Shown here: positions 13,866 through 57,659 of the stretch, piece by piece
How the letters are laid out: each line of letters starts with the position of its first letter
Numbering within the stretch: the stretch's first letter is position 1
Source of the DNA: Pristiophorus japonicus
Lineage: Eukaryota
Assembly: GCF_044704955.1 (NCBI RefSeq)
Contig: NC_091980.1
Span: forward strand, 130,944,001-131,008,000
Direction of reading: 5' to 3'
Length of the DNA: 64,000 nucleotides
Position numbers and translations under genes: made by a program
Notes under the pieces: generated by a model
Database searches by the model: none
The model's input: the letters and a program-made list of their open reading frames with translations, nothing else
Told to the model about the DNA's origin: nothing

Positions 13866-15349
13866 TACAGTTATGGGTTTCAGCTCTTTGTATAAAGTAC
13901 AAGCCTTCATTCCTGACAGGACAGGGGCCTGATTATATAAATACAAGTAATAAACAAAATAAGCTTGATCCCATCAGTTAGTTTAGTCACTCTCCCCCAG
14001 GGTGTGCTTGTCAAACAGGTACTCTCCCAGGCCATTCTCAGGGGCTCCCAGTCTCTTCAGGTTGGTGATGTGATCTCCAAGCTTCTTGATCATCTTCACT
14101 TGTTCATCCAAGTAGTGGGTCTCCAGGAAGTCACACAACTGAAAGAGAAAAGAGGGAAACTAGTTATGGCCAGTAGCAGATATCAACGAACATCAGAGCA
14201 TTCCCTCGCGTTAGGATTTTAATTCTCGAGGAGTGGAGAAGGATCAGGTCGGGCAATTGAGATTGACGTATATTTGCTCTAATGATCGACTAACTCCTGT
14301 ATAATGTGAGCTCAGATCCTGGAAACGTTGGGACACATTTACTTCTCAATGTCCACAGTCGGCCAACTTCCCGGTCCTCTCCCCACCCCCTGAAGAACCC
14401 AGGAGAAACCCTCCCCAAAAACAAAGCTATTGTTCTGAGATCTTTTGAAACAGCTCACGGACAGCAATGTTCCACTACCTTCAACTTACCCAGAAACCCA
14501 CATGAGGAATTTACATGAGGGTCAGTGCTCCCAGTGGAGAGTTTGTGCAGATCCAGCAGACTCTGGTTGACATTCTTCTGCATCTGCAGAGCTCTCTGCA
14601 TCACTTCCAGACCATTGCTCCACTCATCCTGCTCTGGTTTCTGAAGAGGAAAGTCACAGGCAGTTCACTTACAATGGAACAAACAAAATACACCAGACAG
14701 TACAAGGAAAATAGGGGTTTGAAAAAGCAACGAGACATCGATGTTACCATAAACAATGTGTCATAGGAATATAGAAATAATGCATTACACTACCACAACC
14801 ATGGAACCAATTGCTTTCGGAGGTATTTGAAACAATCAGGTCCAAAGGTATCCAGACAGAAGGCCACTAGTTTATTGAACTGAACCTTGATGTCAGACAA
14901 GATGATCCGTCCTCCACGGCGATTCTAGAATTCCATCAGTTTCTCAGCATGCTCACTTTCCTCATGTGACTGCTCCTTGAAGAACTCAGCAAAGTGACGC
15001 AGGGCAACATCATCCCGGTCAAAGTAGAAGGACTGCAGAAAGAATTTAAAACAGCTTCTTTAGACCTTGATCTTCATATACAATGCAGAGTTATTTTTTC
15101 CCTAGTTAGTGAATTCTTAATCCTTCAAAAATAGACACCATTTGTAAACTAGCAAAATGCCATTGACTTCATCAATCAGAGTTGAGCCTCACCTCCCTAT
15201 AGCACGATGAAAATTTTTCTTTGCTGGATGAACCTATAAACCTAAAGTTCAGGATATTTCATGTCCAATCAAACTAAATTCCACTCCTGGATAAGCAATA
15301 CCTCCTCTACTTTCTGTCATTCACACAAGAGTGTGTCAGTCATCAGGTG

Positions 15350-15730
15350 GATGTGAAAGATTAAGGAGGAGAGATTGAGCAGACTAGACCTCTATTCTAG
15401 AGTTTAGAAGGATTAGAGGTGATCTCATTAGAAACATACACAATTCTTACAGGGCTTGAAGGATTAGATGCAGGGAGAATGGTTCCCCTTGCTGGTGAGT
15501 CGAGAACCAGGGGTCAGTTATTGAGGTCAGAGGTGAGGAGGAATTTCTTCACTCAGGGTGGGACTCTTTGGCATTCTCTACCCCAGGAGCTGCAGAGGCT
15601 CAGTATATGCACAAGAAAGAGAAAGAGTAAGAGGAAAAGAGAAAGAGCGAATTTTTTAGATACCAAGGGATCTGGGGACAGTGCAGGAAGTGGAGTTGCA
15701 GTACAAGATCAGCAATGATCTTAGTGAATG
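15350..15730 (+). mobile_element. Old CR1 3' fragment in ferritin A intron 1 (copy ~50520-50860)
   Basis: LETYTILTG...ESRTRG...RRNFFTQ, the CR1 ORF2 C-terminus. Confidence 0.7.
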
Positions 15731-15769
15731 ACAGGAATAGGCCATTGGCCCCTCAAGCCTGTTCGATGT

Positions 15770-54900: not shown

Positions 54901-55299
54901 AAGTTGTTGGATTACAGCATTGCAACAATCACTGAAATGCACCAAATAATTTACTCTCAATGGATACACAGAATTGGAATGACATCTTCAACATGAGACC
55001 TTCATGATGCAGCTCATCAAATCAGACATACACCAGAAGGACAGAGGAACAATAAACCACTTACACAGCCAAGTGTAATTCTGGACAGACATTAATCCAA
55101 AAATAAGCAACCACTCACTCAAATTTACAATGAGACGAAATCCAGTCAAATACTGAACAATTTATTTACATTTCACATCACACGGCCAGGTCTCAAAGTC
55201 TGTACAAAGCCACAGGCTGTCATTCTCGACAGGACAGAGTCTCACACAATTATATAAACACTCGTACTGAAGACAAGAAGCTTATTCCTGGCAGTCAGT

Positions 55300-57659
55300 T
55301 CAATCACTCTCCCCCAGGGTGTGGTTATCAAACAGGTACTTCCCCCATGCAATTCTCAGGGGCTCCCAGTCTCTTCAGGTTGATGATGTGATCTCCAAGC
55401 TTCTTGTTCATCTTCACTTGTTCATCCAAGTAGTGGGTCTCCAGGATGTCACACAAGTAAAGGAGAAGAAGAAAACTAGTTAAGATCAGGAGCAGATATC
55501 AAGGAACATCGGAGCTTACCCATCGAGAGTTTGGATTTTAATCCTCTTGAACGAGAGGATAGTCAAGTGTTGCAATTGAAATCAATGGAATTATTGCATC
55601 ATTTAGATTAAATTTGCTGCACGATAGTTGCTGGGACACATTTACTAGTCAATGTCCACAGTAGGCCAGCCTCCTGTCCCTTCATACCACCCCCGCCCTG
55701 CACCAAAACAAACCACCACAACATGAAGCTATTGGGCAGAGATTTTTGTAATAGGTTCAAGGACAGCAATGTTCCACCGCCTCCAACTTACCCAGAACCT
55801 CACATGAGAAACTTACATGAGGGTCGGTGCTCCCAGTGGAGTGTTTGTGCAGATCCAGCAGACTCTGGTTCACATTCTTCTCCATCTGCAGAGCTCTCTG
55901 CATCGCCTCCAGACCATTGCTCCAGTTTCTGAAGAAGAAAGTCATAGCTCCTTTACAATGGATTCAACAAACAAGTATTGAAGAAATTAATTAGTGATGA
56001 AAAAATGTAATGAGAAGTCAAGGATACCATGAACCAATGACATTAGAATATAGAATTACTGCATTAAGCCATCAACTGCTGGAGTCAGATTGATCAGGTG
56101 AATAGCATAGATGTATTTAAGGGGAAGCTAAATAAGTACATGAGGGAAAAAGAAATAGAAGGATATGTTGCTGGATAGAGCAAGGTGGGAGGAGACATTT
56201 GGAGCCTGATCACCAGCATAGACCAGTTTGTCCAAATGTCTGGTTTCTGTGCTGTAAATTGGAACCAACTGCTTTAAAATGTATTGGGAGCAATCAGTCT
56301 AAGGGAAGCCAGATAGAAGGCCCCTCATTTATAGAACCAAACATTGATGTCCACCAAAATGATTCGGCCCCTACACCGATTCTGGAATTCCATCAGTTTC
56401 TCAGCATGCTCTCGTTCCTCATGTGACTGGTCCTTGAAGAACTCAGCAAAGTGACTCAGGGCAACATCATCCCGGTCAAAGTAGAAGGACTGCAGAGGGA
56501 TCAGAAGAGTAGTTGTGTATCACATGACAGATCCATTATTGTGGGTATTGTACATAAAGCCAAACTCAATTTTGCGAGGAGTTCAAGAAAATTAGGAACT
56601 GGAGTAGGCCATTCAGCCCCTCAAACCTGTTCCACCATTCAATTTGGTCAGATCTGCAGCTTAACTCCATTTATCCAGCAAGTAATTAGGAAAGCAAATG
56701 ATATGTTAGCTTTTGTTACGAAGGGATTAGAGTTCAAGTGTCAAAGAAGTCTTGCTATAATTATACACGACATTGGTGAGGACACACCTGAAGTATTGTG
56801 TACAGTTCTGGTCTCCTTACCAAACAAAGGACATTTTTGACTGAGAGGTGCAACAACAAATGTTCACTAGACTATTTCCTGGAATGAGGAGATGGCCCGA
56901 TGTGGAAAGATTTAGTAGACTAGGCCAATGTTCTAGAGTTTAGAAGAATGAGGTGCAAATCTGATTAAACAAAATGCTGAAGGGGCTTGACAGGGTTAAT
57001 GCAAAAATAAGGTTTACCCTAACTGGGGAAATCTAGAACCAGGGGGTCACAGTCTGAGAATAAGGGGTTGGCCATTAAAGACTGAGAGCAGTTGAAATTT
57101 CTTCACTCAGAGGGTGATGAATTTATGCAATTCTCTACCCCACAGGGCTGTGGATGCTCAGTTATTGAGTATATTCAAGAAAGGAGGTCAATAAATTTTT
57201 GGAAACTAAATAAATTATGACCCAAGGAGATAGTGCGGGAAGGTGGAATTGAGGGAAGAGATCAGCCAAATGTCCTAGTCCTAATGCTGATGTTCTAATC
57301 CCTCGATACCCTTACCCAACAAAAACCTGTCCAGGGAGTCACAGCCTTGGGTGGGTGGAATGCAGGAAGCAAGGAGAATATGTTCCAGACTTCTACCACA
57401 CATGTGAAAAATTGCTTCCCAACTTCTATTATAGTATAGCTTTAACAAATGAATTCACTGTGCATCAAGTGAGGGGTGGGCCGGATACAGCACAGAATCT
57501 AGGAAATTCACATTGCAGCAGGTCCATTGTGAAGTGCTCAGAAATACAACACTCACCATTGAGAGATAAACATAGGAGGAACAGAGCTCCATGTTGACCT
57601 GCTGTGTTGACAGCAGCCTCACAGTCCTTGTGGTAGTTCTGACGAACTTGAGAAGCCAT
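55300..57659 (-). pseudogene. fth1-like: Ferritin H/M-type pseudogene, copy B2
   Basis: Exons 57659-57557 (103 bp, +1 insertion at ~57605), 56489-56343, 55928-55817 (112 bp, 14-bp deletion), 55456-55300 (acceptor CAG>TAC, +1 insertion at ~55345). Confidence 0.92.

Follow-up and report, generated by a model that had tools for sequence, protein, structure and literature searches.

A 5.6-Mb array of ferritin genes and pseudogenes without a 5' iron-responsive element in the sawshark Pristiophorus japonicus

Ferritin copies and repeats in the 64-kb window

The window, by which we mean the whole 64-kb stretch analyzed (C4:130,944,001-131,008,000), contains five ferritin copies on the minus strand, all recovered with C1 as the template and all built on a four-exon plan with coding exons of 102, 147, 126, and 156 nt, as the first-pass annotation had described. 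Two are intact: C1 (33695..37970; exons 37970-37869, 35047-34901, 34280-34155, and 33850-33695) and A2 (48387..51721; exons 51721-51620, 50191-50045, 49050-48925, and 48542-48387, with an insertion of about 750 nt in intron 2) each have an ATG, GT-AG introns, and open frames totaling 176 codons, and retain eight of eight scored residues of the ferroxidase region. These residues (E24, Y31, E58, E59, H62, E104, Y134, and Q138) follow human H-chain numbering, whose register agrees with alignments to solved ferritins. The other three copies, all on the minus strand, were called disabled, and lesions are found in each. A1 (13983..16571; exons 16571-16470, 15032-14886, 14640-14515, and 14138-13983) has ATT in place of the start codon and a stop at codon 70. 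B1 (20140..23397; exons 23397-23296, 21330-21184, 20774-20650, and 20293-20140) has a 1-nt deletion in exon 3 and a 2-nt deletion in exon 4, a stop at codon 127, and TG at the lost intron-3 acceptor. B2 (55300..57659; exons 57659-57557, 56489-56343, 55940-55817, and 55456-55300) has 1-nt insertions in exon 1 and in exon 4 and has lost two acceptors, with a deletion spanning that of exon 3 and AC at that of intron 3. A sixth copy, C0, which is a broken gene of the C type lying immediately left of the window, had been missed. Self-alignment of the window gives two related blocks, the second of which lacks about 7 kb containing the C copy; at the junction (60944..60955) the homolog of position 32582 jumps to the homolog of 39804, and this deletion, by which the block holding A2 and B2 lost its C copy, had also gone unnoticed.

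The B and C copies share a 140-nt repeat insert in intron 2 (34676..34815 in C1, 20961-21098 in B1, and 56120-56257 in B2), 91-93% identical among them and absent in A1 and A2. It is a dispersed repeat, with 33 of 90 matches falling outside gene spans, and it has no match to the CR1 ends present in the window. Upstream of the same copies is an old Tx1-type 3' fragment in gene sense on the minus strand (38452..38620 for C1, 23755-23932 for B1, and 58004-58180 for B2), which belongs to the duplicated non-A unit and is found in 47 of 58 non-A copies versus none of the 15 A copies. Adjoining it at C1 is a young 5'-truncated Tx1-type element on the plus strand (38724..39546), antisense to the gene and 93% identical to full-length copies. 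Of the features first said to unite B and C, the intron-2 insert and the upstream Tx1 fragment absent in A stand, the CR1 label was not confirmed, and the closeness of intron 3 is partial: B and C are closer there (83-87%) over only part of its length, and one stretch is common to A and B and missing from C. Nor do the insert, the Tx1 fragment, and the promoter serve as markers of B plus C, each being common to most non-A copies array-wide.

A TATA box lies 89 nt upstream of the ATG in C1 (38054..38059, minus strand) and 76 nt upstream in A2 (51792..51797, minus strand), and TATAAA occurs within 300 nt in 53 of 75 upstream regions, mostly at 76-89 nt. The A2 promoter is of an A type that cannot be aligned to the B/C type, the two having an identity of about 0.50. 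Most A-type copies have Cys at position 26, where the other copies have Tyr.

Extent and identity of the array

The tandem array reported from the window is confirmed and is far larger than was first seen, since the window is one slice of a 5.63-Mb region (C4:127.78-133.41 Mb) between THG1L and CLINT1. THG1L lies at C4:127.764-127.767 Mb, and a single 200-N gap falls between it and the first ferritin copy, at 127.780 Mb; the last ferritin copy ends at 133.406 Mb, and the last CLINT1 exon is 30 kb away with no gap. Pfam gave no recognition of the CLINT1 exons, and the gene was identified by homology. LSM11, a gene that in human sits in the interval from THG1L to CLINT1, did not appear among the matches listed. 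In a PF00210 search, most of the 150 matches scored (of 1034 candidates) are exon-2 matches at C4:127.8-133.4 Mb, and the array copies are arranged in blocks on both strands.

Thirteen blocks, amounting to 1.464 of the 5.63 Mb (26%), were read as a sample; they hold 96 units, 88 of which have exon 4 and 73 of which have all four exons. Among these 73 units 25 are intact, 41 are clearly disabled, and seven are doubtful, with lesions in the tail only. Copy density extrapolates to about 340 units, and intact copies to about 95, or about a quarter of units. Exact exon-4 words give at least 277 and at least 244 matches genome-wide, with none for reversed controls, counts that omit C4:129.28-129.48 Mb even though copies there contain the word; within the sample the first word picks up 73 of the 88 copies and the second 57 of them. 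Corrected for recall they give 334-377 copies, a few dispersed ones included, and our overall estimate is 320-380. Recent twins, 98.5-99.9% identical, may slightly inflate it.

The array genes combine a PF00210 domain with a four-exon structure whose layout is that of the ferritin genes on C14 and C19. Their proteins match solved ferritins with E values of about 1e-70, are about 71% identical to mammal and bird H chains, and resemble vertebrate M ferritin (frog M, PDB 1mfr) in having 176 amino acids in the same register with the ferroxidase ligands retained. In a protein tree of 43 rows, hand-picked from the matches, they group with a C19 relic and with proteins of sharks, rays, and chimaera in one clade (99/96, bootstrap values that are not fully settled), apart from H and M, and from this placement we read the family as a shark/ray/chimaera clade that is neither FTH1 nor the M gene. 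The origin in cartilaginous fish first proposed is supported by these homologs, but "lineage-specific" is not, because the subfamily is found in sharks, rays, and chimaera and large shark clusters have already been published (10.1101/2024.09.09.611499).

Other ferritin loci were considered as orthologs. The FTH1-type gene is at C14:166.75 Mb, where it bears an iron-responsive element (IRE) and faces a bestrophin gene, the FTH1 ortholog being tail-to-tail with such a gene; the array was rejected as FTH1 because it has no bestrophin neighbor and no 5' IRE and lies outside the H clade, traits that are found on C14 instead. It was likewise rejected as FTL or an L chain, given that it retains ferroxidase ligands and that a separate L-like gene is present at C19:93.19-93.20 Mb. 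The latter belongs to a mixed locus (C19:93.05-93.20 Mb) that also holds an IRE-bearing M-like gene, two divergent ferritins, and array-type relics, the relics comprising at least three decayed exon-1 copies beside the M gene (C19:93.055-93.094 Mb). Unlike the array, the M-like gene occurs once, carries an intact IRE, and is placed outside the array clade. A glycogen synthase gene, a neighbor of FTL in human, is on C19 4.3 Mb from the mixed locus. No second array, built either from the C19 plus-strand gene or from members of the "middle-like" clade of sharks, appeared among the matches scored (40 of 268 and 150 of 1405, respectively).

Proteins named ferritin heavy chain B-like, oocyte isoform-like, or higher subunit-like in RefSeq and UniRef are up to 93% identical to the query, the closest named ones being from the sawshark P. 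japonicus, and the annotated shark and ray proteins, grouped at 90% identity, fall into clusters that span species and have 47-180 members each. These names are automated, and no family, regulation, or history is described with them.

Selection, IRE decay, and ancestry

The intact copies of the array are under purifying selection. Across the 25 of them, mean dS is 0.150 and mean dN is 0.033 for a ratio of 0.22 (300 non-independent pairs), and C1 and A2 compared with each other give 0.16, so that the dN/dS check proposed with the first-pass annotation returns values not near 1. Singletons number 18 synonymous and 19 replacement in the 25 intact copies, compared with 53 synonymous and 174 replacement plus 18 stops in the 48 broken ones, and pN/pS for private changes accordingly comes to 0.27 in the intact set but 0.83 in the broken one (Fisher p 0.002). 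All eight ferroxidase-region residues are kept in 24 of 25 intact but in only 25 of 48 broken copies. The birth-and-death turnover first suggested thus holds across the sample, in which selected intact genes stand next to pseudogenes and to deletions that differ in age. Because most copies are broken, including all eight of the four-exon B copies sampled, there is no need to regard the number of copies as adaptive in its own right.

An IRE, defined as a CAGUGN loop on a 5-bp stem with a bulged C, was found in none of 75 array upstream regions and in two of two controls; the Rfam IRE model also recognized both controls, and none of 13 cluster loci, with no match in the window. A genome-wide IRE search, in which 82 candidates were scored, included the IRE of the C14 gene. 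What persists in the array is a decayed remnant: 35 of 60 non-A 5' UTRs match the C19 IRE above shuffles (p <=0.05, in comparisons that share ancestry and so are not independent), versus none of the 15 A copies. It sits at offsets -46 to -53 from the ATG in nearly all, with a mean match of 16.3 of 28 versus 13.5 in shuffles and runs of up to 11 identical bases, and its loop and 3' stem are altered. The remnants in the window (minus strand) are at 23418..23445 in the B1 5' UTR, with loop and stem broken, and at 57680..57707 in that of B2, and each matches the C19 IRE at 17 of 28 nt; the C1 5' UTR matches at 14 of 28, which is not significant. On folding, the intact IRE forms the expected hairpin, and the B1, C1, and A2 UTRs do not. 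Loop mutations in the human IRE free ferritin from repression by IRPs, according to a passage of PMC8196845, and by this analogy the array mRNAs would be translated independently of iron.

The history first drawn ran from A to A plus a B/C ancestor, then to an ABC triplet and one duplication of it. The ABC triplet is indeed a repeated block, but it has been repeated many times, recurring throughout the sequence that surrounds the window. All A-type copies seen lie at C4:129.2-131.1 Mb. The CDS tree of array copies is nearly unresolved, and segment comparisons conflict, with B and C at 0.85 in intron 2 while the C promoter is 0.77 to the outer copies versus 0.74 to B, suggesting mosaic ancestry through recombination. 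A versus non-A is the deep split, which we leave unpolarized. The flanks of one C19 relic are of the A type, 80-92% identical to A copies, and A-like 5' ends are present in another organism's contigs (judged by eye); the A type is therefore old, although this does not show that B/C derived from it.

In all 10 of the other species for which both proteins are listed, the contig with the array-type ferritins differs in length from the one with CLINT1; length serves here as a proxy for contig identity, and different records may come from different assemblies. By the same proxy, Heterodontus has array-type ferritins and the M ortholog on apparently the same contig. Weighing against a move, copies in other sharks are also split between contigs (Heptranchias). 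The C19 relics together with these off-CLINT1 contigs make it likely that the array relocated, and point to an origin of the family at the M/L locus with C4 seeded later. If so, the array would be a clear-cut example in nature of a gene cluster arising anew at a second locus as the first degenerates. We would put at even odds the fuller account, in which an unnamed cartilaginous-fish subfamily with a decayed IRE became a dosage array for egg iron and was re-seeded on another chromosome between THG1L and CLINT1, where it expanded to hundreds of units while the old copies by the M gene died.

Function, alternatives, and known systems

In vertebrates, ferritin is the textbook example of a gene kept at low copy number and controlled by iron. 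Of the nine dispersed array-type loci examined, seven run across exon junctions with no intron and are retrocopies, one with an A-type 3' UTR and poly(A) and two with non-A 5' UTRs (by eye); these intronless copies show past germ-line transcription of both A and non-A types, and they confirm the predicted splicing. Four public runs, each from a different relative, also yield contigs that cover the exons and join them at C1's introns; the runs are RNA only by guess, have no tissue record, and carry many fixed differences from C1, so the joins are no sign that C1 or A2 itself is transcribed. In the shark-cluster passage of 10.1101/2024.09.09.611499, the largest ferritin cluster of the Greenland shark is ovary-specific, and according to PMC1488847 the ovaries of vertebrates are rich in ferritin transcripts. 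A role of the array in iron-independent ferritin supply to oocytes is thus likely on our reading.

We give a probability of roughly 0.62 to the interpretation that the 5.6-Mb array, with its 340 or so units of which about a quarter are intact and selected, and with no IRE, likely provides the female germ line with iron-storing ferritin in bulk, free of iron-dependent repression of translation. On this interpretation the family would have arisen beside the IRE-bearing M gene on C19, and units would have been copied to C4 in this lineage, where unequal crossing-over, inversion, and deletion would amplify blocks such as ABC and remove or disable copies. Selection would act on the total dose of functional subunits, loss of the IRE would release translation from IRP1/IRP2, and the product would be a cytosolic 24-mer that may load iron into oocytes. 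The estimated 95 selected, IRE-free copies would then offer a testable route for the iron loading of very large shark eggs.

It is unlikely, though a serious alternative, that the array is mostly neutral bloat in which a few functional copies suffice and the rest is the churn of unequal crossing-over in a repeat-rich region. Lesions in 66% (48/73) of four-exon units, the duplication of whole blocks together with their pseudogenes, and tandem Tx1 arrays as recombination substrates all fit such a process, but the estimated number of intact copies, the fact that all 25 sampled intact proteins differ from one another with purifying selection on their private changes, and the recurrence of multi-copy families across sharks do not. 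That the copies serve somatic defense (against oxidative stress or ferroptosis, or through iron withholding in infection), and not egg provisioning, seems distinctly improbable: stress induction would suit an IRE-free ferritin, and PMC13701976 links, at second hand and in the part concerned, the Greenland shark gene repertoire to ferroptosis, but retrocopies require germ-line transcripts, and the sole tissue statement found is the ovary-specific one in the preprint passage cited above. We are slightly more skeptical still that A and non-A copies are diversifying into distinct subunits for mixed cages or different cells, for which their unalignable promoters and the Cys26/Tyr difference could be cited, since dN/dS is low and the coding sequences are barely resolved as a tree.

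The least credible alternative, and one we consider close to negligible, is that the array is largely an assembly artifact. A neighbor at >=99% identity exists for five of the 73 units, and one 261-kb twin block, 99.7-99.9% identical, may be a haplotype duplicate, but median nearest-neighbor identity is 91%, and copies differ in lesions and insertions. The five window copies are 89-91% identical to their nearest neighbors over gene spans, which identifies them as old duplicates and not assembly duplicates; their lesions differ from copy to copy, and the 264 kb around the window have no assembly gap, so the artifact raised as a concern in the first-pass annotation does not account for them.

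Large ovary-expressed shark ferritin clusters were already known from one preprint passage (10.1101/2024.09.09.611499), the only account of such clusters found in a literature search that left out most subscription journals and bioRxiv supplements. That passage gives the Greenland shark 155 FTL and 179 FTH1 copies, about 80% of them in three clusters syntenic with the white shark. The clusters of the Greenland and great white sharks resemble the C4 array in having more than 100 clustered copies over several megabases (4.1 Mb for the largest in the passage), and white shark proteins fall in the same clade as the array. The differences are that the passage names its copies FTH1 and FTL, where the C4 array is neither; that it reports more than 85% at full length, compared with 25 intact among 96 units (73 four-exon) here; and that it describes conserved synteny, where the C4 array is apparently at another locus (by the contig-length proxy). 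It makes no mention of IRE status, and nothing on IRE loss or relocation of shark ferritins was found in the literature searched. The separation from FTH1 and FTL, the decayed IRE, the intact fraction with its selection, and the likely relocation are new as far as that literature goes, and they suggest a trait common to chondrichthyans at large behind the ferritin expansions of sharks, as opposed to longevity-tied FTH1/FTL duplications.

Fthl17 genes are intronless and without ferroxidase activity. The mouse cluster, described in a section of PMC2887969 as seven X-linked imprinted genes, is similar to the array in grouping ferritin-like genes that are associated with the germ line and early embryo; the two are of independent origin. 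Invertebrate yolk ferritins of snail and schistosome likewise use ferritin as an egg iron store, and schistosome ferritin mRNAs lack IREs, by the title of a reference in PMC1488847. These yolk ferritins come from unrelated lineages, and the shark proteins carry no evident signal peptide.

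Tx1-type and other retroelements in the array

Two head-to-tail arrays of full-length Tx1-type non-LTR elements lie inside the ferritin array on contig C4, one of about nine copies at 132.138-132.200 Mb (loci L190-L196) and one of about six at 128.835-128.878 Mb (L120-L124). The copies of both arrays are 7.2 kb each, share 95-99% identity with one another, and carry a long ORF1 and endonuclease-RT frames. Truncated Tx1-type copies occur by the dozen at C4:130.000-130.023 Mb. Upstream of ferritin genes, the old Tx1 fragment, which lies in the same sense as the gene, is often adjoined by young antisense Tx1-type copies, and this recurrent adjacency hints that the elements may target their own older fragments.

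Other retroelements are also present. A young, nearly full-length LINE with endonuclease and RT domains occupies window positions 28113-31830 on the plus strand, between B1 and C1; it is absent from the second block, the A2-B2 repeat of the A-B-C unit, and a 3' piece 95% identical to it lies at 24859-25952. A decayed LTR-retrotransposon, with pieces of RT, RNase H and integrase, is found upstream of the 3' end of A1 (7928-12032, plus strand), and broken reading frames judged by eye to be retrovirus-like lie between the last two ferritin copies (C4:133.394-133.398 Mb; L081).

Rearrangements, matching lesions and the array edge

Changes of strand near C4:130.900 Mb (about -44,000 relative to the window) and in other blocks reveal several inversions in the ferritin array, and an inverted pair of 81 kb, at 129.2 and 129.6 Mb, is 98.5-99.3% identical. 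The deletion over the exon-3 acceptor of B2 (window 55817-55940) was scored identically in two copies, at C4:129,278,058 and 129,637,117, that lie 1.4-1.7 Mb away, which could reflect shared ancestry, conversion or recurrent deletion. In C0, the broken copy just left of the window, an AT microsatellite stands in place of the promoter (L040; window -826, upstream). The left edge of the array carries a 5S rRNA-like sequence (L072:8396-8527; C4:127.788 Mb).

IREs and ferritin sequences outside the array

Four ferritin-type IREs were perfect-scoring among the matches listed (C10:8,568,868, C12:134,270,889, C17:127,177,973 and C18:13,522,966; L052-L055), and no ferritin coding sequence was found within 1.5 kb of them. 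On C19, two divergent ferritin genes, each single, lie beside the M-like gene (93.109-93.142 Mb; L220-L222, L057-L058); one has an open frame with an altered ferroxidase region, and in the other an ATG is missing where the start would be expected. The first ferroxidase glutamate is missing from an L-like ferritin gene at C19:93,189,325-93,203,530 (L062-L064), and inspection by eye showed no IRE there. The FTH1-type gene has processed pseudogenes on C20, at C4:295.29 Mb and at C6:252.38 Mb (L002, L003 and L004).
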